Assembly (NCBI RefSeq): GCF_050320075.1
Contig: NZ_CP190021.1
DNA length: 64,000 nt
Direction: 5' to 3' (one strand)
DNA from: Escherichia coli
GTDB lineage: Bacteria > Pseudomonadota > Gammaproteobacteria > Enterobacterales > Enterobacteriaceae
Shown here: positions 18,434 through 62,604 of the stretch, piece by piece
How positions within the stretch are numbered: position 1 is the stretch's first letter
Layout: every line of letters starts with the position of its first letter
Notes under the pieces: generated by a model
Seen by the model: only the letters and a program-made list of their open reading frames with translations
The model's database searches: none
What the model was told of the DNA's origin: nothing
Translations under genes and position numbers: made by a program

Positions 18434-18457
18434 ACTGTTCCGTTACAGAGTGGGTGG

Positions 18458-43790: not shown

Positions 43791-44615
43791 TTACCAGGGT
43801 AATAAAGACGTATTAAATAAGCTAACAGGTAGTATTTGCCCTGTAATAAGGTTCCCGGCAAGGCCAGGTCTCAACGTGACGCGTCGCAAAGACATTGTTG
43901 TATTCTGCCTGGTTGTATATTCAGTTAACCATTTTCTTTTTTCATCGTTCAGAAGTGTTGGTGATAATGATAGTGCCGGATATATTACAGAGCCATTTAT
44001 TTCTTTTTTCTGTCTCAATATTACCCCGCAATATTCTCTTTTCGTATTTCCTGCGAAGGGGAAACTATGCCAGAAAATAACTTCAGTGTTGCTGCTATCA
44101 CTAATAAGCATTCTGAAATTATCAGCAGTATCTGGCCATTCACCGGACAACGCTATCGGATAGTTTTCATGGCCATTCAGCCAGTCCGGATTGAGATTAA
44201 AACATTCAGCAAGATGTTCGAGAGCGTCAGCTGAAAGATAGTCTGCAAGTCTGGCCGGGTCCTGTATAACCGTGGAGCGGATATTCCATGGCGACAGCAA
44301 TGTTGCCAGTAATGGCGCATTTATATCATGCGACAGCATGATGTATTCAATTCTGCTTATTATGTTTCCTGTGGTGTTATCCGCAGGCATAAACATATTA
44401 TGAAGAGCATCCTCAAGCAGGATTCGGGTTAAATCAGCGGTGGATATGGCTAATTGTTCGCTCATTATCCCCAGAACTTCTCTTACCCCTTGGGGGTAAC
44501 GGACCTGCAGAGGTGTCGGGTTTATCTGACGACCGTTGATGAGTTTTTCGCCGATTGCTTTTTTGTCCAGCGAGAGCATCATTCGGGCCGCAATACCGGT
44601 CGTATTCAGTCTCAT
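43791..44615 (-). CDS. traE: TraE
   Basis: 274 aa; last tra gene before rci; synteny only. Confidence 0.6.
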   Translation of the reverse strand: MRLNTTGIAARMMLSLDKKAIGEKLINGRQINPTPLQVRYPQGVREVLGIMSEQLAISTADLTRILLEDALHNMFMPADNTTGNIISRIEYIMLSHDINAPLLATLLSPWNIRSTVIQDPARLADYLSADALEHLAECFNLNPDWLNGHENYPIALSGEWPDTADNFRMLISDSSNTEVIFWHSFPFAGNTKREYCGVILRQKKEINGSVIYPALSLSPTLLNDEKRKWLTEYTTRQNTTMSLRRVTLRPGLAGNLITGQILPVSLFNTSLLPW

Positions 44616-44765
44616 TGTTCCTCCGACTGAAAAAGTCTTTTCAGCTCATGTGGTTATTGTATCTTCGGTGTTTTTTCTGGTGAAACGAATAATTTCGATC
44701 ATGCAGATCGAATGTGTTTGGCGAGTTGTTGCAACTCGCCTTTCTGTATGTGTTTTGAATGATGT

Positions 44766-45920
44766 TTACAGCGGGGTGCTGCCCGGGTTCAGAGGGCAAA
44801 TCATAATGTAGTCAGGGTCGTTAACAGGTAACGCTCCGGGAGATGGGACACGTTCGCCTTTCTGTGCTGCAATGGCCAGTGTACGCAACAAAACCTCACT
44901 GGCGCGGTGAACTGCTTCCTCTTTCGTTGTGGCAGTGACGTGAAGGTTATCAAAATCACCGATCTCAATACGATGCGCTTTCTGCCCATTTTCTTCATCG
45001 ATGGTCGTGATATGGGCAGGATACGGCACAAACCATGCTGCTACTTTTTGTGTCTGCCGCCGGCGGGCATCAAGCTTACTGACCAGTTGCCATGCACGAA
45101 GATGAGTATACCGTTTCAGCATATTCATGGAACGATGTCCTGATATTGCAGCAATCTCCATTACATTCAGGCTACCCAGTTCGAAGAAGCGGCTTATTGC
45201 TTCATGCCGTAGATCGTGAAAATGCAGGTCCTCGATGCGAAGTCGTTGTGTGGCTATTCTCCAGGCATTTTTAAAGCCGGATGCGGTGTAATCAAAAACA
45301 TTGCCGTGGAGATTAACGGGCATCATCTGAAGAAAGTTACGGGCACGTCTGGACAGAGGAACATCCCGTGAGTGACCGTTTTTGGTTTCAGGTAAATGAG
45401 CCACACCGTGGCGCAAATCAATGTGCTCCCAACGTAAGGCCAGTATTTCGCCCTGCCGCATGGCTGTCTCAAGGGCAAGATGGAAAATGACATACAACAT
45501 CAGATTTTTTTCGCGGAAATAGCGAGAAAGGCGACGTTCTTCTGAAGACGTTAGCCGGCGATCTCGTCCCGAGGATACTTTCGGCTTGCGAACCAGTTCA
45601 ACCGGGTTAGTACGACAGGTTCCCCATTCAACACGAGCAATATTGAACAGAGATGACAGAAGGGCGAGTTCAAGACGTACAGTATTACCTGTAATGGGTT
45701 TACCCGTTCGGGGGTTGATTTCTGCTAAACGAACGTCTCTGTATGTAGCAATATCAACGGTTGTTATTTCGTCCATATTCCGAAGGGCAATGGGATATCG
45801 CTTGATAACATTGCTCCGGTAAAACTCCTGTTGATGCCCTTTCTTGTGAACAGAAACTGTTTTCAGGTACTTATCCAGTGCGCGTGACAGGGACATTTTA
45901 CGGATGCGTGGAGACGGCAT
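44766..45920 (-). CDS. rci: shufflon-specific tyrosine recombinase Rci (384 aa)
   Basis: Start [19 protein letters not shown]; tyrosine recombinase motifs (R..HDLRH..Y); directly adjacent to the 19-bp shufflon repeats. Confidence 0.92.
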
Positions 45921-45971
45921 GCTAACCTCAAAAGAGGCAAAAAATAATGCCAACAATCATTCTCTGCAAGC

Positions 45972-45990
45972 GTGCCAATCCGGTACCTGG
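45972..45990 (+). repeat. shufflon sfx repeat 1
   Basis: gtgccaatccggtacctgg. Confidence 0.9.
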
Positions 45991-46446
45991 GGCGCTCCTA
46001 AAATTCAATTCACAACGCAGACCTACAACATAGCTAAAAACACTCGTAATTTAAGGCTCGGGGTCCATGCATATTGCTCATGGACTTACCTGAATGGCTC
46101 ACCCTTTGGTGGTTTTCAACAGGTATATTCCGACCAAAACAACGTTTGGTATGTGAGTAATTATGCTTGGGGAAATTATGAGTCTGGTGGGACCATATCA
46201 GTCACATGCCTCAATCTTCCTGGTGCTGGAGCTTAATTAAAGGGGCAACAGTAGGCATCGACATGTTCCTCATCAACACCATCACCAATACCGTACATGC
46301 GTGTTCCAGTCATAATGTATCCAGTCGGACATTGAATCGGCTTGTAATAGATCGAACCACCACTCTTACCGCCGATAAAGTGATTCATTGCTACGGATGA
46401 TTTGTACCAATTACATGCTGAGTAATTAATTTTATTACCCCCTGAC

Positions 46447-46465
46447 CACCGACCGGATTGGCACG
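46447..46465 (-). repeat. shufflon sfx repeat 2
   Basis: reverse complement gtgccaatccggtcggtgg. Confidence 0.9.
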
Positions 46466-46472
46466 TAGGCCA

Positions 46473-46491
46473 GTGCCAATCCGGTACTTGG
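46473..46491 (+). repeat. shufflon sfx repeat 3
   Basis: gtgccaatccggtacttgg. Confidence 0.9.
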
Positions 46492-46801
46492 CGTAAAAGC
46501 AATTCTGGTAGTACGGTGATAACTGGTCGTATAGCAAATGGTCAGCAAATACCGCTGCCAACAGGATTTTCTGCCAGTCAGTGCTCATGGAGTGTGAGCA
46601 ATGCAGAAAACCCTCAAGGTTGGAAGCCGAATTACTTTGCAGGATCAGTTGCAACTTATGATGCAAATCGAATTGTTAAATGTGGTTTTTATGATGAATA
46701 CAATTTCCATAAAGGGACATTTAGAGCTGATTTAACCGGAAAATGTAGTTATGTCGTCGCGTGTCAGAACTGAGATTAAATTGCTGGCGCTGCTGGCCTA
46801 C

Positions 46802-46820
46802 GTGCCAATCCGGTACCTGG
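46802..46820 (+). repeat. shufflon sfx repeat 4
   Basis: gtgccaatccggtacctgg. Confidence 0.9.
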
Positions 46821-47307
46821 AGAAAGGTAGGATCTGGTGAGCTTCAAATTGCTACAGCACAGGCCACAGGTTGGCGCTTTCCTGGAGCAACAGCTACTTG
46901 TCCAACTGGAAAACGTGTTACAGGTGGCGGCGGAATATGCACCTCACGAACTGGTTACATATGGCTTACCAGGTCATTCCCATCAGCCAATAACTCATGG
47001 TCGGCTGCGTGCGATACAACCGAAGATCAGAATGGTTCAATAACTGTATATGCCATTTGCCAATAAGCTATTTCAAGCAAGTAATCTTCATAAAGTAGGA
47101 CGAATACTGTGTGTAGTTTTTGGCTTGCCAAGTCATCTCGCCGTTAGAGTCAGGCATGTCAATAGGAACGACTTCTGTTTCTGCCATTTCACGCCCGTCA
47201 ATACGATAGGTGTTAATACACAGTTTAAACCTCCCTAAGACCTGTGTGTTTTTGGGATATAACGTAAATGTTTTTATATTCGTCCATATCGACGCTGATG
47301 ATGATTT

Positions 47308-47326
47308 CCAGGTACCGGATTGGCAC
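47308..47326 (-). repeat. shufflon sfx repeat 5
   Basis: reverse complement gtgccaatccggtacctgg. Confidence 0.9.
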
Positions 47327-47334
47327 GTAGGCCA

Positions 47335-47353
47335 GTGCCAATCCGGTACGTGG
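47335..47353 (+). repeat. shufflon sfx repeat 6
   Basis: gtgccaatccggtacgtgg. Confidence 0.9.
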
Positions 47354-47685
47354 AAGACTTCTGGTTCGCTCAATGGTTCTTACACAAACTTAGGTTCACA
47401 TAGAGGTTCATTCTCAGGGCGGAATTCAGGGGGCAGTACATTGTTTATTTATGCATCTGGAGGTAATGGAGGATCTGCCGGAGGTGCATGTGCAAATACA
47501 TCCCGACTGCAGGGATATGTTGGTGGGACGCTAATTAGCGTGAATGCCAGCAATAACCCTGCATATGGAAAAACAGCCTTTATCAGCTTTGCTGTACCTG
47601 CAGGTACTTCCTATCAGATAACATCCTATCCAACAGAAAATACATCATGTGGTGCCGGGGTATTTTCAGTATTTGGATATCAAAC

Positions 47686-48990
47686 TTAATTGAGCGTTAC
47701 ACACGACGCAATACAACCTGTCTTATGCTCGTATTTGTACCATTTGCGTGAACCTGCTGGGCTCTCAACTACCTGGCAGTAGTGGGCATCCTCTGCGTTG
47801 CCCATTCTGGCAATGGCACAGAAGTCGAATTGCCCCAGATAACCTGTGGTGGAAAGCTGAGTAACTTTGAGTTTTCCACCTATTGTCCCCCACGTACCGG
47901 ATTGGCACGAAAGTATTGCCCCTGTATTATCGCGGCCTACAAGGCCGTTAGGCGAACATGATGCGCCAGCAACGGCAGTTCTTTCCAGTTGTAAGTATTC
48001 ACCAGTATAAAGGCGACCATCAGCCCGAACAGTACCGCCTTTCACCTGACCGCCGGTATAGATGCCCTTGTTGTTTACACTTCGAACCCATGATCCATCG
48101 GACATATAAAATCCGCCACCGTGAGTTTCATTGAGCCAGCCTTTACTGTTACGAGTAATTAACCAACCATTATTACTTCTGATATCACCGCCAGCGGTGA
48201 CATTTACGTCAAAGTTTCCGCTATTGCCTTTTACCTGACCGCTGAAAGTGCCATTTACACCATTCACATTGCCGCTGAAATTACCTGTCTGGGCATTTAC
48301 TGCCCCAACGTTATTCAGGTTATTTGATCCCATATCAATGGCCGTGTGCATTTTGTTTAAGTCAGGGCGACCATTGACCTGGAATCTGTAAAGACGATCA
48401 GTGTCCTCAGCTGCACCACTAAGTTCATCTGTCGATAACAATACGGCAATATGCCCGTTACCGCTTTTGGCACCATAATTACTTAAAGCTACTGACCAGG
48501 AACGTAATGCACCTGTGGCTGTTTTGCCGTCCTGGATATATCCACCAAGACCAGTGGTAATATCCTTAGCCATCTGGATAAGTGCTTTCACTGGATAAGG
48601 TGTGCCACCACTGGATACAACCATTGCCTGTAGTAATTCCGGGTTTTGGGCGTTTCGAACCACATATGCCTGTAACCGCTGCCCCTCGCTGTTTGTCTCA
48701 GTAAACCCGCTGGACAAAAAGCCGGTATTTTTCAGCATGGTTGTCGTGATAACGGCAGGAGTTGTTGTGGTACTACTGCCCTGGAGAGTCGTGTAGTTTT
48801 TCCCTATATAAGAGCGGGCCGCACTGGTCCAGTTGCTGACAAGACGTGCTTCAGTTTGCCATCCTTTTGTTTGAATATAGTCCTGCCATATGCCCGCTCC
48901 CCAGGCAATCAGGAGCATAACAATCAGTAAAGCCGCGCCAGTTTCCAGCGATGCCCAGCCTCGGTCATATTTTTTCATCAGATTACCCAT
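47686..48990 (-). CDS. pilV: PilV thin-pilus adhesin / minor pilin with shufflon-selected C-terminus
   Basis: Type IV pilin-like N-terminus; CQSGTW junction encoded by sfx repeat 7. Confidence 0.9.
47889..47907 (-). repeat. shufflon sfx repeat 7, inside pilV at the constant/variable junction
   Basis: reverse complement gtgccaatccggtacgtgg. Confidence 0.9.
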
Positions 48991-49661
48991 AGTGGTTGAT
49001 AAAGATTATCCAGCAGCAAAAGGACATGGCCAAAACATAGCCATGGACCCAGAGGGCCTTCTTTATGCCCTTTTATGCACCATGTTGAATGCCATAAGAC
49101 AAATCCTCCTGTGCCCAGCAACACACACCATATGGCGTTATATAACCCTGACCATGCGGTAATACCTGCAATAAGCCACAGGTCTCCAGTGCCAATATTA
49201 AGACGATGGCGGTTAACTAATTTATGAAGGCAGAATAAGACAATTGCAGCAGTGGCAAATTCTGTTGTACGGAACCACCATATATCAGTCGTGATTTGTG
49301 ATAGCATTCCTGCAATTAAAAAACGTCGGGTGAATGTTCCTGGTAATAAACCTGTCAGTGCATCCGTTACCGCCATTTGCAGTATGAACGAAAGAATAAG
49401 GACAGCATGAATACGGTAGAGCAGTGGTGATGATGATAAAATAATTAACGCCACAGCTATACTGTATAGCCATATTCCTGACAGAACAGCAGGGTGTGTC
49501 TTATACCAGAGATGTCCCGTATCAGATAAAAAATAACGAACTCTGAATAGCAGAGTTCGTCCAATAATGGAAAATGTGAACATCAATGGCAGTATATAAA
49601 CAGGGGATAGACTTATGCCTACGATTGTCTGCATTGCCTGCCTCCCTGTCCGGGAAGACAT
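48978..49661 (-). CDS. pilU: PilU prepilin peptidase (A24 family)
   Basis: Polytopic membrane protein with prepilin-peptidase-like core; synteny. Confidence 0.8.
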
Positions 49662-50179
49662 ATCCCTTTCATGTCACGATAAATTCTCCATATTTTATTG
49701 GCATATTGCTCTCTTGTTTCATGTCTGTCCTTACGGAATCCGGCATTGTATGACCCAAGGCAATTCCAGCTGACGCCACATATCTGAAAATGTCTTGCCA
49801 GTATCCAGCTTCCTATATGGATATTAAGGCATGGTTTGGTAATTAAATCCTCAGACTTTTTTATTACGCCCATATTTATCAGCTTTGGAATATGGGTTGA
49901 GTTTATTTGCATCAACCCATAATCCGTGCTACTGGCTTTACCTGTTTTTTTGTCCTTATTTATATTAATTGCGCCCGGCCTCAACGAAGATTCCCCGGCA
50001 GAAATAGCCTTCAATAATAATGGTTCAATTTGATAGCGCGCGCCGGCAGCGGCAAAGCAATTGTCCCACTTGTTGGTCCAGATCTGTTTGGGAGCTACGT
50101 ATGAAGCTCGGGCGGGTGGAATAAGAGAAAAAAGCAGGATTAATGAAATAAGTCTGAGGGGTACTGTACCCCCTGACAT
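49619..50179 (-). CDS. pilT: PilT lytic transglycosylase
   Basis: SLT-domain motifs AGESSL and GLMQIN; signal peptide. Confidence 0.8.
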   Translation of the reverse strand: MSGGTVPLRLISLILLFSLIPPARASYVAPKQIWTNKWDNCFAAAGARYQIEPLLLKAISAGESSLRPGAININKDKKTGKASSTDYGLMQINSTHIPKLINMGVIKKSEDLITKPCLNIHIGSWILARHFQICGVSWNCLGSYNAGFRKDRHETREQYANKIWRIYRDMKGICLPGQGGRQCRQS

Positions 50180-50188
50180 TAAAACTCC

Positions 50189-50803
50189 TTAACCATTGAT
50201 GGTGAAGATAAGTTTGTTTGTACCAGTGCTGCCATTATCTGCCTTGCATTGCGTACTGGCTTCTTCAGTAGTGACTTTTCCATCACTGTGAGCAGTACTG
50301 TTCAGGGTAATGCCGTTAGTTAAACCAGTTTTACTGATTCGTGTGGCAATCTGGATACAGGCATCCTGTGGGACTTTATCATAGGTAACGGTAAAACCGT
50401 TGTTGAACCCTGATGTTGAAGCCGGGGCAACAGTTACAGCACCGCCCCATGCGTTATAGAGCGTTGCTGTACCAGATGTTTTGTCGCCCTGTACGGTCAT
50501 CCCAGAGGGAATGACACCCATCTGAATGAGGGCACCTGTCATTTTGGCACTGCTGGTAAATGTATATCCATCGCTACCTTTTAGCAGGCTCTGGGCACTT
50601 GTGATAATTGTTTGTATATTTGCGGTTTCAGTTGCCACATTGGCTCTTGTACGCAACGCATACAAACTACCCAGAACAACGACTATAACAAAAAGAACAA
50701 CGAGCGCTATTGTTCCCTGCTCCAAAATTGCCCATCCTTTATCATGAGGCTCATTCTTCTTATTATTTCCAGTTAAAGTGGTATTAATATTTTCTACTAA
50801 CAT
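50189..50803 (-). CDS. pilS: PilS type IV prepilin (major thin-pilus subunit)
   Basis: Long leader followed by hydrophobic pilin helix GWAILEQGTIALVVLFVIVVVLG. Confidence 0.8.
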   Translation of the reverse strand: MLVENINTTLTGNNKKNEPHDKGWAILEQGTIALVVLFVIVVVLGSLYALRTRANVATETANIQTIITSAQSLLKGSDGYTFTSSAKMTGALIQMGVIPSGMTVQGDKTSGTATLYNAWGGAVTVAPASTSGFNNGFTVTYDKVPQDACIQIATRISKTGLTNGITLNSTAHSDGKVTTEEASTQCKADNGSTGTNKLIFTING

Positions 50804-50820
50804 AAATATCCTCGTTTTGT

Positions 50821-51918
50821 TTAAAAGTTACCCATGCTGTTGTCACTAATAGACTGAATATCCATAATGGCAAAAACCAGTAACATGAGAGACATGACAA
50901 GAAATATCAGCATAATTAAACGAATCACGTTTGCCCGTTTCTTTACACGTTGAAGTGTTTGACTAAGCCATCGTTGACCATAATTGCTGATTAGCTCTGT
51001 TGCGCCATCTCCCTGTAATAAAGACAGGAAGTTGGCTGCTTCCCTGGATGGGAACTGATAACCGCACTGACGCAAAGCCAGTCCAAGATGATCCCCCTGG
51101 CGGACGCGGTAAATAATGCTGTCAAGACGTGTGCTTAACCATGGTGATGCAAACTCCTGAAGAATGTTTAGCGAGTTGAGCGTCGTCATTTTGGCTTTCA
51201 GAAGTGCAGCCATATTCAGGAGAAATGTTGCTCCCTGTATATCCTGATAAATACTCCATGGCATTATCTTGTCGGCAAAAGTACGAACACTGTCAGGGCT
51301 TTTCCAGTTTGGAAGAGACCATGATATTAAACCTGTGATCACTGCAAAAAGAACGGCACATATAGCGCCGTAATTATCGACAAAAACAGATAATCCATAA
51401 AGAAAACCAAGAGCACCACTCCATGAATCGGGGGAGCTTATTTTGCTCAGTTCAGGTATTAGCTCTGTATTCAGAACATATAATGTCCCCGTCATCATGA
51501 TTAACAATCCCACCGGATAAATAGCCATTTGCCATATAGCCTGATGGATTTGTTCTTTTGCATCTGTAAGAGTGGTGGCGAATTGCAGTGCATCCACAAT
51601 TGAACCACTTCTTATCCCGGCGCTGATTACTGCGGCCTCTTCCTGAGGAACCCATAAACTAAGAGTATATTCCAGAGAGTTTTCGCCACTGTTTTCACGA
51701 AGAGACTCAATGCAGTCTGTGGCCAGTTCAGCAAAGGGATGCCATTTTCGTCCAAAGTCTGTCCAGGCATCCCGCATCTGTTCCAGTGCGGTCTTTAATG
51801 GCTGTTTATTTTCCAGCAGAAAACGCAGGGCTTCGTAAAACTGCACCCTGTAGGGGGCGCTGAACGTTTTTCTGACAATGAAACGCCTCAGCCGTTGACT
51901 GAAATTCATTTCACGCAT
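50821..51918 (-). CDS. pilR: PilR inner-membrane platform protein (GspF/PilC-like)
   Basis: 365 aa polytopic membrane protein; synteny. Confidence 0.8.
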   Translation of the reverse strand: MREMNFSQRLRRFIVRKTFSAPYRVQFYEALRFLLENKQPLKTALEQMRDAWTDFGRKWHPFAELATDCIESLRENSGENSLEYTLSLWVPQEEAAVISAGIRSGSIVDALQFATTLTDAKEQIHQAIWQMAIYPVGLLIMMTGTLYVLNTELIPELSKISSPDSWSGALGFLYGLSVFVDNYGAICAVLFAVITGLISWSLPNWKSPDSVRTFADKIMPWSIYQDIQGATFLLNMAALLKAKMTTLNSLNILQEFASPWLSTRLDSIIYRVRQGDHLGLALRQCGYQFPSREAANFLSLLQGDGATELISNYGQRWLSQTLQRVKKRANVIRLIMLIFLVMSLMLLVFAIMDIQSISDNSMGNF

Positions 51919-51930
51919 GTTGTTCTCCTG

Positions 51931-53484
51931 TTAGACATCATCGATGCTGAGGCGCTCGTCTTCGTCCAGAGGGATGATTCTGTCGGCTTCAAGAGGGTCT
52001 ACCAGACCTTCATTGATACGGCGAAGAAGATGCTCTACACGACTGATGCCTTTCATGTTTTCCAGCCAGTATTTACGTGCTGCAACTTTGCCGCGTGTTT
52101 TCAGAATCTGAAATAAGCGGTTATCAGGTTCTATCACCTCAGCAATTACAGTCCTGCCGGTGAGGCCTTTACCTATTTCACCGCGCTTTCTGCCGTTAAT
52201 GATTACGTCGTGATTACATTCAGAGCATCCGTGATGATTTCGGAACCAGATATTATCTGTACTGCAGAGTGAATCTTTATTGCAGTGCCGCTCAAGGTAA
52301 TCACGCTCGTCGTCGCTAAGTTCAGGTGCTCGCTTTTCCCATGGAATACGGCAGGAGGGACACAGAGTTGGTACAAGGCGCTGGCTGATCATCCCAATCA
52401 GTAATTGCGCATCGCAAATAAGATCGGCATTCATACCCATCGTAATCATTCGCTCCGGTATACCCAGAGCTGAGTTTGTATGTAATGTCGTCAGAACTAT
52501 GTGCCCGGTCTGTGCCGCGTAGGTGGTTGACATCATCGAGATAAGATCGCGCATTTCCCCTTCCATGATGGCATCAGGGTCAAGTCGCATTGCCGATGAA
52601 ATAGCCCGACTCCATGCCAGTTTGACGGCATCTTCGTCGGATTTGTCGCAGATAATCGGAGTCTGTGTTGCTCCCAGTATCTGTCCTTCCAGCGGATCTT
52701 CGATTGTTAGCAGGTGTCGCCCCTGATTATCGTCAAGATATACACGGCAGGCGCTGCGTAACGTTGTCGATTTACCGGAACCGGTTGGACCTGACAGGAC
52801 TATTTTTCCTTCCGGGCGGCGCAGCATTATGTTCAGCAACCGGATTTGTTCCGGGATAAAGCCCAGTTGTTTAAACGTGGGAACTTTATCTCCGTCATCG
52901 GGTATCAGGCGCATAACTGCAATCAGACCGTCTCCCGTAGGTCTGTGACTGTAGCGTGCACCAAATATTCCTATTTTTCGCATTAATTGTGGGGACAGGC
53001 GCGCATCCTGCTCCCTTTGAGGGAAGAAACTGGTTTCAGTGACATCAGCCATTGACAGAATGGCTGTTGCGCAAAGTGAATAGCCCAGTGCTGGTTGATC
53101 TTCATCTACAGTCTGCAGTTCACCGAATATTCTCATGCGAACTTTGAAAATAGACTCTGAAATTAAGAAATGAATATCTGAAGCACCAAGTTTTCTGGCA
53201 GTTTCAAAATAAGATAGAACTTTCTTCTCACTTTCACTGACATCAGCAAGGTCTTTCAGATGAATAATTCGTTCTTTCGGGCCTCTGTTTTTCTCATCCT
53301 GACCTGCCTCCTGTAACTCCGACAACGAGACTACTTTTGGGTTGATATCCGGATATAATTTTAGCAGCTCCTGGAGATTACTTTGTACGTCAGGCCTTGT
53401 CCGCTGGTTTGTTTCTATAAGAATTTCATGGGTGTCTCCCCTGGATATAAAAAGGAGAGCATCCTTCAGATTATATTTATCCAT
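51931..53484 (-). CDS. pilQ: PilQ secretion NTPase (GspE/PilB-like)
   Basis: Walker A GPTGSGKSTT; C-terminal Cys-rich region; 517 aa. Confidence 0.9.
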   Translation of the reverse strand: MDKYNLKDALLFISRGDTHEILIETNQRTRPDVQSNLQELLKLYPDINPKVVSLSELQEAGQDEKNRGPKERIIHLKDLADVSESEKKVLSYFETARKLGASDIHFLISESIFKVRMRIFGELQTVDEDQPALGYSLCATAILSMADVTETSFFPQREQDARLSPQLMRKIGIFGARYSHRPTGDGLIAVMRLIPDDGDKVPTFKQLGFIPEQIRLLNIMLRRPEGKIVLSGPTGSGKSTTLRSACRVYLDDNQGRHLLTIEDPLEGQILGATQTPIICDKSDEDAVKLAWSRAISSAMRLDPDAIMEGEMRDLISMMSTTYAAQTGHIVLTTLHTNSALGIPERMITMGMNADLICDAQLLIGMISQRLVPTLCPSCRIPWEKRAPELSDDERDYLERHCNKDSLCSTDNIWFRNHHGCSECNHDVIINGRKRGEIGKGLTGRTVIAEVIEPDNRLFQILKTRGKVAARKYWLENMKGISRVEHLLRRINEGLVDPLEADRIIPLDEDERLSIDDV

Positions 53485-53494
53485 ATCACGTTAC

Positions 53495-53947
53495 TCAGAA
53501 AGTAAGGGTGGTGCCATCACTTAACGTGACGCCAGACAATGAGATCGACTTCACTGTGACGGATGTGCCTGGAAGCTGGCTGCCAGTGGTGACGCTTGTC
53601 TGACGTCCATCAGCCATGCGAAGAACGGCATTAAGACGTTTATCTTTGCCGTTTATTTCCATAATAACGGGCAATTCCTTTCTGTTTTTAGATGTCGGCT
53701 GCTCTGAAACTGATGGCAAAGAGGCAGTCACACCAGAGAAACCTGAAACAGTTTCAGATGATGAAGTAACATCTGATTCTTCGAGTTGTTTCTGTAGCTG
53801 TGCGCCCTGAACTTTTGCCTGTAAAAGAATATTCCGGTTTTGTTGTGCTTCAAGTTCTCCTATTGTGACAAGAGGTTGTGTTGTTGCAAATGAAAAACCG
53901 GAGAAGAAAAATATGGATGGAATAATGAGTAATTTACCTGGACGCAT
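53495..53947 (-). CDS. pilP: PilP
   Basis: 150 aa with signal peptide, synteny. Confidence 0.65.
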   Translation of the reverse strand: MRPGKLLIIPSIFFFSGFSFATTQPLVTIGELEAQQNRNILLQAKVQGAQLQKQLEESDVTSSSETVSGFSGVTASLPSVSEQPTSKNRKELPVIMEINGKDKRLNAVLRMADGRQTSVTTGSQLPGTSVTVKSISLSGVTLSDGTTLTF

Positions 53948-55229
53948 AAATATGACCTTCTGAGGAATAACTGAAAGTACCGCCGTTTAATTCAAAATGG
54001 ATATTGCTCAGACGAACGCCGGTATCCTGAAATAAAGGGAACAACTCATCAGGATTTACAGGCGTTGATAAACTGAACTGATATTCTTTCCATTTCTGAA
54101 CAGGGGCTGGTTCACCATCGTTACCTGGTAATGGTTCCGGTATGGCTATTTCATTAATGGCCGGCGTTAACTGTTTTTTCTGAAACCACGTGAACACCCG
54201 CATCAGTTGTTCTGAGGGGGTAGGGACTGCCTCATCCCTGCGGGGCAGGGAAGGCAGTGGCCGGGTTACAGAAGCCAGGCGTGCACCATCTTTAAGGTTA
54301 AAGTCAGGAATAACATTAAAGATTTCTTTGCTTCTTGCCAGAAAGCCTTCAATAGTTCCTCCTGGCTGTCGTTCGTAAATCAGTGTGAATGTCTCGGGAG
54401 TACATGTTCCACCGGTAAGTTTCCAGCCTTCTAGCGCGACCGGTGATGGTTTTCGAAGGTCCGCGCAGGCTTTCAGAAAATCACTGATTACAGGTTGTGA
54501 TGCCCATGGATGCGGGAGTTCTGGCGGTGGATCGGGCTTTTTAAACTGCAATCTTGCCCGTGCAGCTATCTCCTCGGGCGTCGGTACGACATCCGGCTCT
54601 GGCTGAGTCATCCAGAATACAGTGCCTGCGCTGGCTGCTACTAAAAAAAGTACGGCAGGCAGTGTGAATTTGCTGCGATTGCCGACAGTAAGTTTGCAAC
54701 GGCGGAGATCTGCTGATGATAACCGGGTAATAATACTTTCCCAGTTATCAGGATGTTCCAGAGGAGATACGACCTGCCATTTTTCGGGGGGCTCTTCGTT
54801 CATCGTCAGAAAAAGACTGACCTTTTGAGCAACATCAGCATCATTTCCTGACAGATCAGCCATAACGGCAGGCTGGCCATTAATGGAGGCAAGGAATAAA
54901 AGCTCCTTATCGCTGTACCGGAAGACGCCGTATCCATTTCTCACCCATGAGCAGAAAGCCAGAGCAAGGGAAAAATAATGATTGCGCTCCGGCCTGGCCA
55001 GTATTCCTGTGCCGGTAATGCGGCTGATCTTCCCACGGGAACTTCTGCTGCCTACAGTCACTTTCAGAGAGGTAAGCCGTCTGGATTTTACATGGGGCTT
55101 GTGTTTCTGATGAGAAGGGACTCGCTGTTTTTTTACGACAGGACTCCATTTAAGACAGGCTGCCCACACGCGATGATTTACTTTAGGATCTGCGAGAAGT
55201 ACAACCGGGTTGATATCTTCATCAGCCAT
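53934..55229 (-). CDS. pilO: PilO
   Basis: 431 aa, synteny. Confidence 0.7.
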   Translation of the reverse strand: MADEDINPVVLLADPKVNHRVWAACLKWSPVVKKQRVPSHQKHKPHVKSRRLTSLKVTVGSRSSRGKISRITGTGILARPERNHYFSLALAFCSWVRNGYGVFRYSDKELLFLASINGQPAVMADLSGNDADVAQKVSLFLTMNEEPPEKWQVVSPLEHPDNWESIITRLSSADLRRCKLTVGNRSKFTLPAVLFLVAASAGTVFWMTQPEPDVVPTPEEIAARARLQFKKPDPPPELPHPWASQPVISDFLKACADLRKPSPVALEGWKLTGGTCTPETFTLIYERQPGGTIEGFLARSKEIFNVIPDFNLKDGARLASVTRPLPSLPRRDEAVPTPSEQLMRVFTWFQKKQLTPAINEIAIPEPLPGNDGEPAPVQKWKEYQFSLSTPVNPDELFPLFQDTGVRLSNIHFELNGGTFSYSSEGHIYASR

Positions 55230-56904
55230 TGTTGCCTCCTGACGGGAAAGTCGGGGTAATGATGATTACAAGCGTGCTGCGTTCATTTTTCCCGGTTTGT
55301 GAACCACCAAATAATGGATTTGCTGGCGTAAACGTACCGGCTTTACTTGTCGTCGTATTGTTCTGATCGAAACCAGTAACGACAAGTGATTGCCCTTCTT
55401 TCAGATTGACCTTCTGGCTCAGTGAACGCAGTTTGGTATACGGCATTTCGATGTAACTGTTTCCGTCTTTTGACGTAAAGCTACGGATTGTTGGGGGATC
55501 TGACAGATTAAAATTCATCTGCAACTGGAGATTGCCCGTTTTCTGAATTAAAGGCAGCAGGGTCATATTGAATCCGGTGGTGATCATGCCCGGCGTTAAT
55601 GTTGTTGTTGCTCCTACATCCGTAGTCGTTGTTGTTGCTGACTGGGCGACGTAAACCGTCTGATCTGCCATCTGGATAGGTACCGGCGTCAGGTTTGTGA
55701 CAGTGCTTTCTTGTGAAGTCACAACACTGACATCGCCCTGTTCACTCAGCGCTTTAATCAGAAGACTGGAACCGCTGAATTTGGCGGCATTCCCTGTTGC
55801 CGTATCCAGAATTGATACGCCTGCAGATGTAGCGCCTGTAAAATCTCCGCTTGCATTGTTCAACGTTGCTCCGGCGGAATGTAGCGATTTATAAACAAGG
55901 TTCCAGTCCAGACCGAACTGTTCGTTTCTGGTATTGCTGACGCTCAGAACCTGTACGTTCAGGGCTACCTGGCGGTTCATAATACTGTTTTGTTCGTCCA
56001 CATATCGTGCGACGGCTTCCTGGACAGCTGGAGTATCAGTGACAGTCAGCGTTGAGCTCGATGCAGATAACCAGTAACGGCCTTTTTCTGGTGTCAGCAT
56101 TGCTTCAATAGTTTTCCGGATGTCTTCATACAGATCGTATTCCTGACCAACGGTTGTGCTCTGAGAGGACGTTGCATCACCGGATGCTGAGTTATCCTGG
56201 CCTCCTGTTGCCCCCATTGTGCTTGTTGAGCCAGAGCTGACACTGGAACTGCTGCTGGTTTTGGTGTTCAGCATATGAAGTGGATACGTTCTGGTTTCAG
56301 TCAGATAGAATACAATCCGACCATTATCCATGCGCCAGTACAGACCACTCCGGCTGGCCATCAGATCCAGAAGACCATTGATATCTCCCTGCCACATGAG
56401 GTTATTCAGCGTTAATGGCTGAGTGGAGGTAGTCATTGTTGTGCTGCCCAGGCTGCTTAACGGTAGACGCCCATTTTCATCTGGTGCTGGTAGTGTTCCT
56501 GTCATCTGGCGGGTAGCGCCTCCTTCAAGAGTTGAATTGGCTGCGTCAGGCGTGATGATCACAGGGATGCCGCATACGGCAGTAATACGTTGCCCCAGTT
56601 CCTGCAGAGTGATCTCTCCTTTTCTTGCCTGCGTGATGTAGCAGGCCGGAGCTGTTTGTTTTTTCTCTCTTGATACCTGAGCGACCGGAACAGGGTTTAT
56701 CCATTGATTATCGAGCCAGGTAAGAGCCTGCGATTTACGGGCCGAAAGGGCTGATACCTTTTCCCGTGCATGTGCTGAGTCTTCCTGTGCTTTTTTCTGC
56801 ATTTTGTTGATTTCGCTGAAAGTACATCCGGAGATGGAAAGAGCGACGGCGATCATGCAGGGGAGCACCGCCAGCTTCATTGAACGCTGGTGTGATTTTT
56901 TCAT
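55222..56904 (-). CDS. pilN: PilN secretin-family outer-membrane lipoprotein
   Basis: Lipoprotein signal SISGCT; secretin-like C-terminal domain; 560 aa. Confidence 0.85.
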   Translation of the reverse strand: MKKSHQRSMKLAVLPCMIAVALSISGCTFSEINKMQKKAQEDSAHAREKVSALSARKSQALTWLDNQWINPVPVAQVSREKKQTAPACYITQARKGEITLQELGQRITAVCGIPVIITPDAANSTLEGGATRQMTGTLPAPDENGRLPLSSLGSTTMTTSTQPLTLNNLMWQGDINGLLDLMASRSGLYWRMDNGRIVFYLTETRTYPLHMLNTKTSSSSSVSSGSTSTMGATGGQDNSASGDATSSQSTTVGQEYDLYEDIRKTIEAMLTPEKGRYWLSASSSTLTVTDTPAVQEAVARYVDEQNSIMNRQVALNVQVLSVSNTRNEQFGLDWNLVYKSLHSAGATLNNASGDFTGATSAGVSILDTATGNAAKFSGSSLLIKALSEQGDVSVVTSQESTVTNLTPVPIQMADQTVYVAQSATTTTTDVGATTTLTPGMITTGFNMTLLPLIQKTGNLQLQMNFNLSDPPTIRSFTSKDGNSYIEMPYTKLRSLSQKVNLKEGQSLVVTGFDQNNTTTSKAGTFTPANPLFGGSQTGKNERSTLVIIITPTFPSGGNNG

Positions 56905-56917
56905 GAATATATCCAGA

Positions 56918-57355
56918 TTAGTTAACGTAGACGACAGAACCAGCAGTAATGCCTGCCGGGGGTGTCAGACCGGTTGCAGTTCCTGATAGCCAGGTGAGTT
57001 GCCCGTTTTGGAAGATCCCTATTAGTGCAGAACCACGACTTTTTGAACGCAAAGTTTCAACAAGACCTGGTTGTTCAGGCATCCATACCCACAGACGCCC
57101 CTGTTGTAACTGATGTTTAATTCGGGAGTCCGGAGTGACAGGGAGAGCCAGTTTATCTGAGGAAATTACTCCGTCCTGCTGGCCTGATACGTATCTGATA
57201 TCATTGATTCTGTTAGCAATCATCAGTATCTGACTTGCCCATACAGACGCACTTGCATATTGCTGGGCGTTTGTGGTTTCAGACATCTTCTGATTCTGGT
57301 AGCTACCAGTGATAATCAGAATGGTCAGGCCGACGGCCATGACCAGCCATCCCAT
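56918..57355 (-). CDS. pilM: PilM
   Basis: 145 aa with N-terminal transmembrane helix; synteny. Confidence 0.65.
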   Translation of the reverse strand: MGWLVMAVGLTILIITGSYQNQKMSETTNAQQYASASVWASQILMIANRINDIRYVSGQQDGVISSDKLALPVTPDSRIKHQLQQGRLWVWMPEQPGLVETLRSKSRGSALIGIFQNGQLTWLSGTATGLTPPAGITAGSVVYVN

Positions 57356-58422
57356 TAGCGACCATCCCTTGTATCAGAAACTGTAATGATGCACTGCATG
57401 CGAGAAGCCTGTGCGTATAAAGGTTTTTGCGCAGTCCGATATAACTCAAATACCTGCTCCATGGCTGATTCAAATGATCCCCGGAACATTAAAGGCGCAT
57501 CCAGACGGTAATCGGTTACAGAAAGTGGCCATATGACCATCCAGTGCGTTGATGCCATGCTTTCGCATTTTGTTTCTTCTGCCCACTTGATAATGTTCTC
57601 TCTTAATGTGGTGCCTGCCGGCGCACGCCACTCTTTACCCTGAGATACCGGTTTAACAGGCGTTCCGGTCATGAGCGGGATAGACTTGACTGTGGAGCCG
57701 GTTGGAGTCGGGGTGGCGGCGGGGGTTGACGAAGATACGCTGTTTCCTCTGAATGGATTTCGTGGTTTGTTCTGGCTATTTGCTGTTGTTGGAGATTCAG
57801 GGGAAGTGGATGTGGTTACCATGGCTGCTGGCGAGATAGTGGTTGCCGTGTCCTGTGCCGGTGCAGCAGCTGATGTTGTGACGGTCAACGTTTTATTATC
57901 CCAGTCCAGATGGCCCCATAGGTGTTGTTCTTCCAGCAACCGATTCAGAGAACGGGTCCACTGATCATTGGCAGACCATGAAACCAGTTTGGTATTCAGC
58001 TTGGGCGTGGCTGCATTCTCTTGTCTGAATTTCCATCCTTCCGGTAGTAATGTTTTTATCCACTGACTGACGGTCCGGTTACGGGCCGTCGGCGATAGTG
58101 TTACAGGGGCGCTACCAGGCTTGCCTGTAATGATTAACCGGGAGAAATTCTGACTTATTGTTGGTGAAGGTAACGGTCGGGATTCGCTGACTGGATGTGC
58201 TGTTTTTACTGTCTCTGGCACGCTGACTCTCGGGGGGGGAGTTATTTTAGGTGGAGAAAGACGTTGTTGCGTAAGTGCCAGAACGCCAGCACTCTCACTG
58301 ATTTGTCCGTCAACAAAAACCAGAGCAGGCGTATCTGATGGTGCCACGTTATTGCTGCCGGAAATTCCGGCACAGCCGGACAATAATGACGGCAGTATAA
58401 GTGTCAGATAGTTTTTTTTCAT
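57355..58422 (-). CDS. pilL: PilL lipoprotein
   Basis: Lipoprotein signal LLSGCAG; 355 aa. Confidence 0.8.
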   Translation of the reverse strand: MKKNYLTLILPSLLSGCAGISGSNNVAPSDTPALVFVDGQISESAGVLALTQQRLSPPKITPPPRVSVPETVKTAHPVSESRPLPSPTISQNFSRLIITGKPGSAPVTLSPTARNRTVSQWIKTLLPEGWKFRQENAATPKLNTKLVSWSANDQWTRSLNRLLEEQHLWGHLDWDNKTLTVTTSAAAPAQDTATTISPAAMVTTSTSPESPTTANSQNKPRNPFRGNSVSSSTPAATPTPTGSTVKSIPLMTGTPVKPVSQGKEWRAPAGTTLRENIIKWAEETKCESMASTHWMVIWPLSVTDYRLDAPLMFRGSFESAMEQVFELYRTAQKPLYAQASRMQCIITVSDTRDGR

Positions 58423-58455
58423 AACGGAGACTCCGTGTTCGTATATACGTGTTTG

Positions 58456-59046
58456 TTAATTGGTGTGAGGCGGCTGGAGAGGACGAATGACGACTGTCAT
58501 TCCGTCCGAATGCAAATGCGGGAGAGACCACTGAAATAAGAGATATACAAAAGGAATTGATAATCTTTCATACAGACTTGTTTTCCGTGGGCATGTAATA
58601 ACAGAGAAATTCAAACCATAAGATTCCAGTCTCTTTATAAGTTTATTTATTCTTGCAGGAGTAAAGAGATGTGAATGCATAACAATGGTTTCATCATTAT
58701 TAATTGCTTTTGATATCAGAGAAAGTAACACATCCCAGTGTTTCCTCATTGACTCCGGGCAACGTGTATCGGCATAGGGGCTAAGATGTATGCTTGATTC
58801 TTTACTGCCATTTTTTTTCGCAAAGAATGTGAAGTTGTATTTAGATACAGACCTTACGATAAGAAGCACGCATCTGAAAAGTAGTGGGGAAAAGCAGATA
58901 ATAACCACTATACAGAAATATAATATATAAGATAGTGATATGTGGTCAGTGTATAGATAACGGAAGTATTGCCACGGGGTAGTGATGTACAGGCAAAACG
59001 TACACCAAAGTAACCATAGATATAATGGTACGTTATTATTTTTCAT
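58456..59046 (-). CDS. pilK: PilK-like membrane protein; paralogous to the product of 60113-60739
   Basis: N-terminal transmembrane helices; C-terminal region similar to ORF 60113-60739; AT-rich; symbol positional. Confidence 0.55.
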   Translation of the reverse strand: MKNNNVPLYLWLLWCTFCLYITTPWQYFRYLYTDHISLSYILYFCIVVIICFSPLLFRCVLLIVRSVSKYNFTFFAKKNGSKESSIHLSPYADTRCPESMRKHWDVLLSLISKAINNDETIVMHSHLFTPARINKLIKRLESYGLNFSVITCPRKTSLYERLSIPFVYLLFQWSLPHLHSDGMTVVIRPLQPPHTN

Positions 59047-59095
59047 GTTAGTTGATGCCGGCGACTAAGATAACAGAGTAAGGGGGATTAACTGT

Positions 59096-59548
59096 TTAAT
59101 TCTTTGGAACGAAAAAATGCAGTTCCTGAACATCACACACCATTATTTCCACAGGCTTACCATTTTTATCCAGTAAATTTGAATTGGTTTCAAAAGATTT
59201 GCAGTTGTTTTTACTTTTAAATGAATCAAGGTACAGGGTGTTAATGTCAGATTCGTCATCTGTTGTTTCTCTTGAAATAATACTGTTTTTTATCACCACA
59301 TTTTCATGTATCTCATTTGGCATTTTGTACTGTTGCAAATATTGTTGGCGGCGGATGCGTGCCTGTTCACTGCTTTCTATGAACACCACCGTGATGATTG
59401 CCCCGTACATGATAATCAGGAAAACCCAGAAATCTTTTGGTATCTTCCAAAAAAGTGCGGACAGTTTGTTATCTGATGAAATTAAAATCGGAAAAAGGAT
59501 TGCAAAGACAATCAAAATCGCGATGGTTAATTTAAATAAAAACGACAT
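59096..59548 (-). CDS. pilJ: PilJ-like small membrane protein
   Basis: 150 aa, two transmembrane helices, AT-rich; symbol positional. Confidence 0.5.
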   Translation of the reverse strand: MSFLFKLTIAILIVFAILFPILISSDNKLSALFWKIPKDFWVFLIIMYGAIITVVFIESSEQARIRRQQYLQQYKMPNEIHENVVIKNSIISRETTDDESDINTLYLDSFKSKNNCKSFETNSNLLDKNGKPVEIMVCDVQELHFFVPKN

Positions 59549-59590
59549 GGTCCCCTCCTGTTTTGACGAGGTCTTTTGTTTTTGTTGTTT

Positions 59591-59845
59591 TTACGACAGC
59601 CAGTCCTGCAGGTGCTGATGGCGGGAGCGGCTACCCTTGCGCCAGCGGCAGTGGCTACCGGGTGCACGTTCCAGGCGGAACAGAAATCGGTTGTTGCATA
59701 GTACCACCACAAGGCAGTTATCCGGCGTGCAGAAGCGTCGGGCAAGCTCATCGGGATCTGTCTGTGTTTTCGTTGAAAACAGCTTGCGTTTGCAGTGCGT
59801 GTCGACGACCAGTACCTGTAGTCGTCCGGGATGTTGCTGTGGCAT
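59591..59845 (-). CDS. pilI: PilI-like small protein (84 aa from ATG 59845)
   Basis: ORF of expected size at the head of the pil operon; symbol positional. Confidence 0.45.
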   Translation of the reverse strand: MPQQHPGRLQVLVVDTHCKRKLFSTKTQTDPDELARRFCTPDNCLVVVLCNNRFLFRLERAPGSHCRWRKGSRSRHQHLQDWLS

Positions 59846-60112
59846 CAAAGACTCCTTTCGGAACGGGAAAAGAAGCAGCTGTACCGTCGTAACTGCACGT
59901 ACCGGTTGCGAAAAAACGGCACAAGCGAGTAGTGACAGAAAGAATCCCGGGAACGGCAGAAAGGGTGGTACAGGCTGCGAAGACGGGTCACGGGGTGTGT
60001 CGGGAATTAACGCACGTGAGGCGTAATGAGAGCGAAGCTCTTTTTGCCAGGGTCATCTACGTTGATTTTCATGTATGTTTTCCTGTCGGAAATCGTGGTG
60101 CTCTTATAACTG

Positions 60113-60739
60113 TTATTCCCTGTTTCCAGAATCGTTTTTCAGGGTCAGAATGACAATACCACAGCGGGGATTTATGTGAGGCACTTTCCACTGAGATAAG
60201 ATTCTGCTGACGATGAGGATGCGGAACATGACGCTATTCATGGCGGATTCCCTTCGTTCCGCTGTTACATCCAGCCCTTTTCGGCGCAGAGAGCAAATCA
60301 GCTTTTGTGTCCTGGCTTCAGTCAGAAGATGGGATTTCATGTAGATACGTTTCTTCTGGCGTAATAAGGGGGGCAGCTTTTCGAGTAATTGCTTGAAGTG
60401 TTTTTTTATCGCCTTCTTTGAGGAAGTATCTGCGAGTGCGCTCAGGAAAACACATACTGTGTGATTGTCAGACATGTCTTTGGTTTTAAAACTATTTTTC
60501 CTAAATATTATTCTAAGCAGAATGAAAAACGGACGGACTAACAGCGGGAGAGCTATCATCCCCAATATCTCTACTAGCGTCCATATGTTCATCTGGTACA
60601 AGCCATCCTTGCAGAGCAAAATCGCTATAATGCACCAGACGCTATATATAGCTAATGGAATACGATATTGGAGTTTCATGTATTGCTCTTCCTCAGTGTA
60701 ATGTGATAGTCGTCTGCTCCTGTGTTGCACCCCAGACAT
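60113..60739 (-). CDS. traD: TraD-like membrane protein, paralog of PilK
   Basis: Transmembrane N-terminus; C-terminal similarity to the 58456-59046 product; start may be the internal Met; symbol positional. Confidence 0.5.
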   Translation of the reverse strand: MSGVQHRSRRLSHYTEEEQYMKLQYRIPLAIYSVWCIIAILLCKDGLYQMNIWTLVEILGMIALPLLVRPFFILLRIIFRKNSFKTKDMSDNHTVCVFLSALADTSSKKAIKKHFKQLLEKLPPLLRQKKRIYMKSHLLTEARTQKLICSLRRKGLDVTAERRESAMNSVMFRILIVSRILSQWKVPHINPRCGIVILTLKNDSGNRE

Positions 60740-61376
60740 CTTCTGGCAGGCTGGGCAGCCCGATAAATAAGGTGTGAAAGAGGGTTTCTCTGCGTTCGAT
60801 CCCGAATTGATGTTCGTATCCTCTCACCACCTGAAATCCTTCGTCGGAGAATATTAACTCTGCCGCTTCCAGAAGCTGCATAGTTTTGCGGTGTAGTGGA
60901 GTGATCAGCTGCAACGTAACTGGTGCCCTCATATCGCCTGTCGGTAGAAAACACTCTTCGGTGCGACTTAGTTGTAGCAGATGACGTTTCCCGGAACAGG
61001 CCCGTTCAATGGATTCATTGAACACCCTCTCAGGCCATGGGCAGACATATGTGCGCCAGCCTGCTTTCTGTAATTTACCCAGTGCAGCCCGAAAACGAAA
61101 CAACGGACATTCCCCGACAGTGGCAGAGCTGAGAAAGAGCGTATTCAGCGTTCCGATGATGGGAATATTGCGATCTTTTTCGGTCAATGCTTTTAACGCC
61201 ATGATTTCGCCAGGGAGACTACGGAACTCAGGATGTCTGCTGGCACCAGAAAGCCATTCAAGCAGGTAATGCCGTAATCCGGTTTCACTGGTTATATTGT
61301 GGTTTTCCTGTGCCGTTTTCAGGGCATTCAGTGCACACCAGAGCAACTGGCGCACGGGATGTTCTGTCGTGGTCAT
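60693..61376 (-). CDS. traC: TraC-like putative transfer regulator
   Basis: 227-aa ORF between the NusG-like gene and traD; symbol positional. Confidence 0.55.
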   Translation of the reverse strand: MTTTEHPVRQLLWCALNALKTAQENHNITSETGLRHYLLEWLSGASRHPEFRSLPGEIMALKALTEKDRNIPIIGTLNTLFLSSATVGECPLFRFRAALGKLQKAGWRTYVCPWPERVFNESIERACSGKRHLLQLSRTEECFLPTGDMRAPVTLQLITPLHRKTMQLLEAAELIFSDEGFQVVRGYEHQFGIERRETLFHTLFIGLPSLPEDVWGATQEQTTITLH

Positions 61377-61629
61377 GCGAATGTCCTACTGTGAGATGAA
61401 AAGAAGACCGGTATCCGTTCTCTCCGCCACACGTGATGGCACGGGCCGGCCTTTGATAAAACGAATCAATACTCTGGGGTGAAGCCTTTTATTTCTTTCG
61501 CCATTAAGAAATACACGGTTCCATCAAAAGACAGGGGGAGTCCATGGTGGGGATGGCTTCGTGCAGGCTTCACTCCGGAATATTCTCTTGAATTGAAAAA
61601 AGCCCGGCCCGAAGGCCGGGAAATACTGG

Positions 61630-62184
61630 CTATGGGATGTTTACAAGGCGCTCCATAAAGCCGTGATGTTCGGCATTTGATACCAGTTCCAGGAGCAGGG
61701 ATATCCTCGACTCAGGCTGGAGAGTATTTTCCATTCTGAGGAGATACTGATATTGTGCTTTTGTCAGCCATATGCTGGAAGCCGCATTCAGCTCTTCCCT
61801 GGCTCCCGGATTTAGCACAGGGTCCGGGTAAATCTTCATTAATCCATCAACAATATCTTTATTGACGGGTTTTATTTCACCGCCAAACTTCACGAAATCA
61901 ATGAAGGCGCTATGTCGACGTAATGCTGATACTGGGTGAATGTCAAAATTAGCCAGAATAAAAAAGTACCCTGGAAAAATAGCGAATATTCTTTCACGGT
62001 AACAGCACCTGGAGTCTGCCCGTCTTATCTTTCTTGTTATTAATGGAGTCCATGGTACGACGTTTTGCTCATTCAGCCATGAGAATAAAGATTCTCTGTT
62101 TTTGCCGGCTGTATTATATTGCGCAAGATACCAGTTCCGGTTATTCAGGTGTTCTATATTCACGAAGTTCAACGCTCCGCGCAA
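61630..62184 (-). CDS. traB: NusG/RfaH-family specialised transcription antiterminator (TraB/ActX-like)
   Basis: NusG N-terminal-like NWYLAQYN..PGYFFILANFD..FVKFGGE; the track start is a TTG, and a GTG at 62163 with a GGAG RBS is a more likely start. Confidence 0.75.
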   Translation of the reverse strand: MRGALNFVNIEHLNNRNWYLAQYNTAGKNRESLFSWLNEQNVVPWTPLITRKIRRADSRCCYRERIFAIFPGYFFILANFDIHPVSALRRHSAFIDFVKFGGEIKPVNKDIVDGLMKIYPDPVLNPGAREELNAASSIWLTKAQYQYLLRMENTLQPESRISLLLELVSNAEHHGFMERLVNIP

Positions 62185-62292
62185 AACCGATCCATGATGG
62201 ACGATTTTGCGATGTCAGGCGAATATGCTAAATCATATGTCTGAAGCAGTGTCCAGCCCATATCTGGATAAACTGCAGTTCTGACAGGCATA
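62169..62292 (-). promoter_or_regulatory. bipartite conserved leader element, copy B, at the traB start
   Basis: Box 1 tcaacgctccgcgcaaaaccgatccatgatgg, box 2 ctgcagttctgacaggcatat. Confidence 0.5.
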
Positions 62293-62604
62293 TAACCAGC
62301 AGACTCTAGTACGTTCTGTATCGGTGATTTGGCGAACTCACAGATAAAGAACGGCTAAGCACTAATATCAGCAATACAGTGGCACAGTATTGTGATACGC
62401 GAAATAAAACATCAGCACGTCAGTTCAGAGTAAGGTCGCCATATATCGGGCATGAGCCAGATACAAATAACTGGGACACCGTCTGAAGTGATTTGCTTTA
62501 TTAAAGTAACTTGTGCTTGGTGTTTATGTTTATCAATTTGGGATCGCCTGTAAAGTGCAAAATGCAATTTCCATGAAAGTGTCCCCTTTAATGGGGACAC
62601 CTGT

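Follow-up and report, generated by a model that had tools for sequence, protein, structure and literature searches.

The multiple-inversion shufflon of plasmid R64 was reportedly described by Komano et al. in 1986-87. Site-specific inversion likewise exchanges the C-terminal portions of surface or host-range proteins in the Hin, Gin, Cin and Min (p15B) systems, which are driven by serine recombinases together with an enhancer and Fis. The R64 switch is operated by Rci, a tyrosine recombinase that needs no cofactors in E. coli (PMC11852207), on 31-bp sfx sites that comprise a variable left arm of 12 bp, a 7-bp core and a conserved right arm of 12 bp (PMC11852207; PMC5430464). The asymmetry of these sites and the extra C-terminal domain of Rci restrict the R64 reaction to inversion, and the segments invert singly or in groups to generate seven PilV adhesins (PMC11852207; PMC5430464), which bind lipopolysaccharide core structures of the recipient from the tip of the thin pilus in liquid matings (PMC5430464). 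Related switches are known from other plasmids. In ColIb-P9 (IncI1), pilV is subject to an Rci/sfx switch of this kind, but three segments are reported, A, B and C, and the published description thereby sets it apart from the locus analyzed here, which has a fourth, D (PMC5430464). The IncI2 plasmids R721 and TP114 resemble the present locus in having sfx repeats, a recombinase of the Rci type and alternative C-termini of PilV, which are reported to bind lipopolysaccharide cores and would do so here as well. The segments of R721 are, however, described as A, BD and C (PMC5430464), and TP114 has eight variants, one of them a PilVD not present in the window, with variable regions that differ from those of R64 by 5-36 residues (PMC10654706).

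The locus analyzed here is contained in a 64-kb stretch of DNA from Escherichia coli, the whole of which is referred to as the window, and with a probability of about 0.97 it is an R64-type shufflon of an IncI1-complex conjugative plasmid. A pattern search of the window allowing up to one mismatch identified seven copies of the 19-bp repeat GTGCCAATCCGGTNNNTGG, all of them with zero mismatches at the 16 specified bases, four on the + strand and three on the - strand, in an array spanning 45972-47908 (Table 1). The seven repeats in both orientations that a preliminary description had read from the sequence were all found, and the same direct and inverted families were recovered independently by a repeat finder. 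The core, GTGCCAA, and the right arm are conserved, with variation at three right-arm bases (repeat positions 14-16) that read ACC in three sites, ACG in two, ACT in one and TCG in one. Five distinct left arms are present, among which TTCTCTGCAAGC, GCACGTAGGCCA, CTGCTGGCCTAC and GGCAATACTTTC correspond to the published R64 sites sfx109, sfx106, sfx102 and sfx101, respectively (PMC4176322), the remaining one being GCACTGGCCTAC. Two pairs of sites are arranged back to back, each pair with the 8-bp spacer GTAGGCCA in between. In contrast to the serine invertases, the window combines a tyrosine recombinase (Pfam Phage_integrase) with asymmetric sites.

Table 1. Positions of the shufflon sites, segments and adjoining genes, numbered from the first base of the window.
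Feature	Position	Strand	Remarks
rci, shufflon-specific tyrosine recombinase, 384 aa	44766-45920	-	intact; protein identical to R64 Rci WP_001139957.1
sfx, exon C	45972-45990	+	adjoins rci; right arm opens exon C; left arm TTCTCTGCAAGC, fixed flank towards rci
segment C core, 455 bp	45991-46445	.	exon C on +, stop 46234-46236; exon C' on -, stop 46233-46235
sfx, exon C'	46446-46464	-	site reads GGTCGGTGG; right arm TCCGGTCGGTGG, encodes CQSGRW
spacer GTAGGCCA, 8 bp	46465-46472	.	part of both adjoining left arms; spacer common to R64
sfx, exon D'	46473-46491	+	right arm TCCGGTACTTGG
segment D core, 310 bp	46492-46801	+	single exon D', stop 46771-46773; 3' end CTGGCCTAC
sfx, exon B'	46802-46820	+	direct orientation relative to the D' sfx
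segment B core, 487 bp	46821-47307	.	exon B' on +, stop 47064-47066; exon B on -, stop 47068-47070
sfx, exon B	47308-47326	-	pattern search
second spacer GTAGGCCA, 8 bp	47327-47334	.	same sequence as first spacer
sfx, exon A	47335-47353	+	right arm TCCGGTACGTGG
segment A core, 536 bp	47354-47889	.	exon A on +, stop 47687-47689; exon A' on -, stop 47686-47688
sfx, pilV constant/variable junction	47890-47908	-	left arm GGCAATACTTTC is the constant-region end; equals published sfx101 (PMC4176322)
pilV as assembled, PilVA', 430 aa	47686-48978	-	exon A' joined to the constant region and extending from 47908 to the stop at 47686-47688
type IVb thin-pilus operon followed by traD and traC, upstream of pilV	48978-63000 (end approximate)	-	annotation of pCMY-136 and R64

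The preliminary description had proposed a comparison with the A, B, C and D segments of R64. When this was performed base by base against NC_005014, the four cores were 100% identical: segments C (455 of 455 positions), B (487 of 487) and A (536 of 536) lie inverted relative to the R64 record, and segment D (310 of 310) has the same orientation. The identity extends to both flanking stretches (51 bp towards rci, 52 bp towards pilV), to the constant region of PilV (356/356 aa) and to Rci (384/384 aa), whose gene matches at 1153 of 1155 nucleotides; both differences are synonymous, and these two positions are the only ones at which the bases compared depart from R64. The set of sfx variants in the window is also that of R64, which likewise has seven sites, and the right-arm variant of a given exon is the same in both plasmids, as expected if crossover takes place in the GTGCCAA core. 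R64 presents the order traE, rci, shufflon, pilV and pilU onward, and the window has the same order around the array, together with the same spacers and segments; in both plasmids the shufflon closes the pil operon. The agreement in segments, sfx set, flanks, Rci and PilV constant region bears out the earlier identification of the locus as an R64-type multiple-inversion switch; the shufflon is of an already known kind and adds nothing new to the biology. What differs is the arrangement. From rci to pilV, the R64 record has the order B, C, D, A, and its pilV is joined to exon A (474 aa); the window has the order C, D, B, A, in which all segments but D are inverted relative to R64, and its pilV is joined to exon A' (430 aa). 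In a sequence-level simulation in which any inverted pair of sfx sites recombines at the GTGCCAA core, 1152 states were reachable, and inversions alone sufficed to convert the R64 arrangement into that of the window, with a minimum of four.

The recombinase gene had been noted as adjacent to the array, with its disruption named as an observation that would speak against a working switch; rci proved to be full length. A Pfam Phage_integrase domain covers Rci residues 122-275 (E 5.9e-24) and is followed by a C-terminal extension of approximately 109 aa, and searches of Rci against NCBIfam returned Xer-type matches only, all of them sub-threshold. Scanning 44600-49100 for promoters and terminators gave no excess of promoter-like sites (five, against a shuffle mean of 7.6), and the scan is uninformative on rci expression. 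By the working model, Rci would bind the conserved 12-bp right arm and exchange strands in the GTGCCAA core, and the lack of conservation among the left arms would confine recombination to sites in inverted orientation. The thin-pilus operon ends with pilV, and each inversion would place a different 3' exon after the 356 constant codons of this gene; the PilV C-terminus, located at the type IVb pilus tip, would bind a particular lipopolysaccharide core and so determine the recipients with which liquid mating is efficient. Catalysis, the bias towards inversion and the recognition of lipopolysaccharide are all carried over here from the published, identical R64 system, and should be read as predictions for this plasmid; the recipient specificity named in the preliminary description is likewise based on published studies of R64 and TP114. 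For TP114, the receptor of PilVA' was inferred to be Hep-alpha(1-3)-Hep-4-phosphate, a structure conserved across all five E. coli core types, and homologous R64 adhesins are considered by the same authors to share receptors with those of TP114 (PMC10654706). The A' variant of the window may thus have the same receptor, an assignment that comes from the TP114 homologue and not from the window sequence.

The sfx sites delimit four segment cores of 455, 310, 487 and 536 bp. Joining the constant region of pilV (from 48978 down to 47909, ending in GGCAATACTTTC) in silico to each of the seven post-sfx sequences produced seven open frames of 430-474 aa, and the four segments and seven alternative PilV C-termini of the preliminary description were thereby recovered. 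All seven predicted full-length fusions have exact matches in public assemblies, at 193 to at least 1000 contigs per protein. Five of them carry SwissProt-derived names in UniRef: Shufflon protein A (474 aa, SHU1_ECOLX), A' (430 aa, SHU2_ECOLX), B' (444 aa, RKVGSGEL..., SHU4_ECOLX), C' (433 aa, SHU6_ECOLX) and D' (456 aa, SHU7_ECOLX). For the other two, the names have a less direct basis: that of exon C (444 aa, GAPKIQ...) follows the annotation of CP034252, which labels the exons of segment C as shufflon protein C and C', and that of exon B (442 aa) was reached by elimination. Naming differs between databases, and the RKVGSGEL exon that is B' in UniRef is called "shufflon protein B" in CP034252. 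Two details of the preliminary description required amendment. Each exon had been said to begin with CQSGTW; this holds for six of the seven, and the exon at 46464(-), C', starts with CQSGRW because the right arm of its sfx is TCCGGTCGGTGG. Likewise, the four segments described as invertible are present, but segment D has no independent inversion in the present arrangement: it is flanked by an intact pair of direct sites (46473+ and 46802+), contains one exon and has a core that ends 28 bp past the stop codon, and on account of its direct flanking sites and single exon it moves only when grouped with its neighbors.

In the window, where segments C, D, B and A follow one another from rci to pilV, the exon fused to pilV is A'. 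The suggestion that the expressed variant could be predicted from the sequence was thus sound, the predicted product being PilVA' (430 aa, UniRef SHU2_ECOLX). A Pfam Shufflon_N domain (PF04917) spans residues 33-361 of this protein (E 6.4e-187), no family-level match was obtained for it in NCBIfam, and the RefSeq protein WP_001417545.1 is annotated at the same coordinates in pCMY-136. From this state, a single inversion between the pilV-proximal sfx (47890-47908, -) and any + site would fuse exon A (47335), B' (46802), D' (46473) or C (45972), and exons B and C' would require two inversion steps to reach fusion. Since shufflons are known to be mis-assembled, or to be represented by one molecule from a mixed population (PMC5430464), the PilVA' state may describe only part of the population, and it is unlikely that the assembled order represents the whole of it.

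Related plasmids, in which the arrangement varies, provide indirect evidence of switching, as do the matches of all seven fusions in public assemblies. As BLAST merges only same-strand pieces, which biases the top matches towards the orientations of the window, the 13 distinct shufflon structures found among 17 near-identical loci, and the seven that segment classification resolved among eight records from the near-identical matches to 44700-49000 plus R64 and the window, are counts of structures and not frequencies. Six plasmids have a backbone approximately 100% identical to positions 1-25000 of the window, and their shufflons differ both from one another and from that of the window, with two of the six devoid of some segments. 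Degraded shufflons among sibling plasmids include that of CP082715, which retains segments B and A only, with four sfx sites; that of CP028168, without segment D; and that of CP034252, in which a 14-bp deletion removes the core of the D' sfx. In several sibling records the shufflon lacks 1-6 bp and is 98.5-99.7% identical, a pattern suggestive of assembly noise in the region.

Such noise bears on the question of whether the arrangement in the window is itself an assembly consensus or a chimera of a mixed population, in which case the expressed variant would not be a property of the culture. The shortened siblings are compatible with this possibility, as are the within-clone heterogeneity and shufflon mis-assembly reported for these elements (PMC5430464). 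The arrangement is, however, reachable by inversions only, with junctions and spacers intact, and among the matches listed at least eight plasmid records align across the whole of 44700-49000 without interruption. A single uninterrupted alignment implies the same arrangement as in the window, and the state seen here is therefore a recurrent and legal one. On balance, a consensus or chimera appears rather unlikely. Far less credible still is the view of the array as a frozen relic, in which no switching takes place in this plasmid or host and PilVA' is fixed. The degraded shufflons of CP082715, CP028168 and CP034252 indicate that degradation does occur in siblings, but in the window the seven sfx sites are exact and the four segments complete, rci is full length and encodes a protein identical to the experimentally active Rci of R64, and Rci has no need of a cofactor in E. 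coli (PMC11852207). As judged from its sequence, the R64-type shufflon is thus intact and very probably active, and because its parts are intact switching in the present host is very likely. Finally, that the repeats are a chance or non-functional family with no tie to recombination is already refuted, given seven exact matches against a mean expectation of 0.01 sites for GTGCCAATCCGGTNNNTGG (none of 100 dinucleotide-preserving shuffles reached seven), exon joins that are all in frame with pilV, and an array identical to the characterized R64 system.

The surroundings of the array are those of a conjugative plasmid. The array forms the distal end of the pil operon, upstream of traE/traF and IncI1-type tra genes. 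According to the annotation of pCMY-136 and R64, pilV is preceded by pilU (prepilin peptidase), pilT, pilS (major pilin), pilR, pilQ, pilP, pilO, pilN, pilM, pilL and further genes up to pilI, beyond which lie traD and then traC, and the operon includes a lytic transglycosylase gene; a Pfam Peptidase_A24 domain was identified in the product of 48981-49634. Colinear annotated records contain IncI1-type tra, trb and nik genes, and an IncI repZ pseudoknot is located at 63885-64000, the end of the window. On these sequence features, the window is assigned to an IncI1-complex conjugative plasmid. Positions 1-25000 match, at approximately 100% identity, several Salmonella and E. coli plasmids associated with poultry, which MOB-suite types as IncI-gamma/K1. 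The window was first assumed to be pCMY-136 on the basis of 100% identity over 44700-49000; this was ruled out by the full comparison, in which identity to pCMY-136 amounted to 99.6% over 21443-64000 (colinear), approximately 98% over 1-18462 and 86-91% over 18607-21313.

The MOB-suite type of R64 is IncI1/B/O, and that of the plasmids matching the window most closely is IncI-gamma/K1. Since a module identical to that of R64 at all bases compared, except for two synonymous rci positions, resides on backbones of the latter type, the pil-shufflon-rci unit might conceivably be exchanged between IncI lineages, and since siblings that share one backbone differ in the segments or sfx sites that they lack, it might then be trimmed within host niches such as poultry Salmonella. 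This combined scenario is very improbable; if true, shufflon content would be a marker of host-range narrowing. For the R64-type shufflon identified here, the consequences are of a practical as well as a biological nature. Four coding sequences annotated as "hypothetical protein" at the array coordinates in pCMY-136 are unfused PilV exons, and the order of segments seen in an assembly is to be taken as one state among many. Shufflons are a classic case of programmed DNA rearrangement and govern the range of recipients open to IncI plasmids, through which ESBL and AmpC resistance genes are spread.

Segment D of the shufflon does not stop at its single exon, since 28 bp separate the D' stop codon from the segment end (window 46774-46801). 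The segment closes with CTGGCCTAC, which on the opposite strand reads as the 8-bp spacer GTAGGCCA between sfx sites. Judged from its sequence, the end of segment D looks like what is left of a partner sfx and exon that have been lost. A PilVD adhesin is present in the IncI2 plasmid TP114 but absent from R64.

Degraded shufflons were identified in three other plasmids that have backbone or shufflon sequence in common with the window. The CP082715 locus (L015) retains only segments B and A, with four sfx, while in the NZ_CP028168 locus (L014) segment D is missing and the fused exon belongs to an A-like segment that has diverged (73% identity). In the CP034252 locus (L012), a 14-bp deletion (within L012 2590-2640) has removed the sfx core of D'.

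The names of exons B and B' differ between databases (window 46802-47066, + strand; L012 1726-2037): UniRef lists the exon encoding RKVGSGEL as Shufflon protein B' (SHU4_ECOLX), whereas the CP034252 annotation has it as shufflon protein B. In PMC10654706, a receptor was likewise moved from PilVB' to PilVB. In the RefSeq annotation of pCMY-136, three of four matching stretches are separate CDSs labeled 'hypothetical protein', and the fourth is 'prepilin, shufflon protein A'. Each of these CDSs is a shufflon exon in its unfused state, lengthened to an arbitrary start codon. For pilV and rci, the assigned start codons differ between sources. The mechanical ORF list begins pilV at an ATG at 48990 (434 aa) and rci at a TTG at 45956 (396 aa), whereas RefSeq and R64 place them at 48978 (430 aa) and 45920 (384 aa), respectively. 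With its start at 48978, pilV shares one base with the prepilin peptidase gene, the final base of the latter.

Unfused shufflon exons and Rfam RNA matches in the window
Feature	Window position	Strand	Evidence
Exon C, unfused	45919-46236		separate CDS in pCMY-136
Exon C', unfused	46233-46388		separate CDS in pCMY-136
Exon D', unfused	46516-46773		separate CDS in pCMY-136
Exon A, unfused	47246-47689		separate CDS in pCMY-136
sok antitoxin RNA	17619-17776	+	Rfam, 134 bits
AgrB antisense RNA	18401-18488	-	Rfam, 53.7 bits
C4 antisense RNA (RF01695)	62945-63032	-	Rfam, 77.5 bits (gathering score 45)
PK-repZ pseudoknot	63885-64000	+	Rfam, 144.9 bits; interrupted by window end

Elsewhere in the window, the sok and AgrB matches adjoin annotated type I toxin genes (Hok/Gef and DinQ-like DqlB), and the C4 match lies close to the traA-traC end. 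The excA/3'-traY region (18607-21313) presents just 86-91% identity to pCMY-136, against 98-99.6% for the remainder of the window; the entry-exclusion locus here carries a mosaic patch. The PK-repZ pseudoknot marks the IncI replication-control region.
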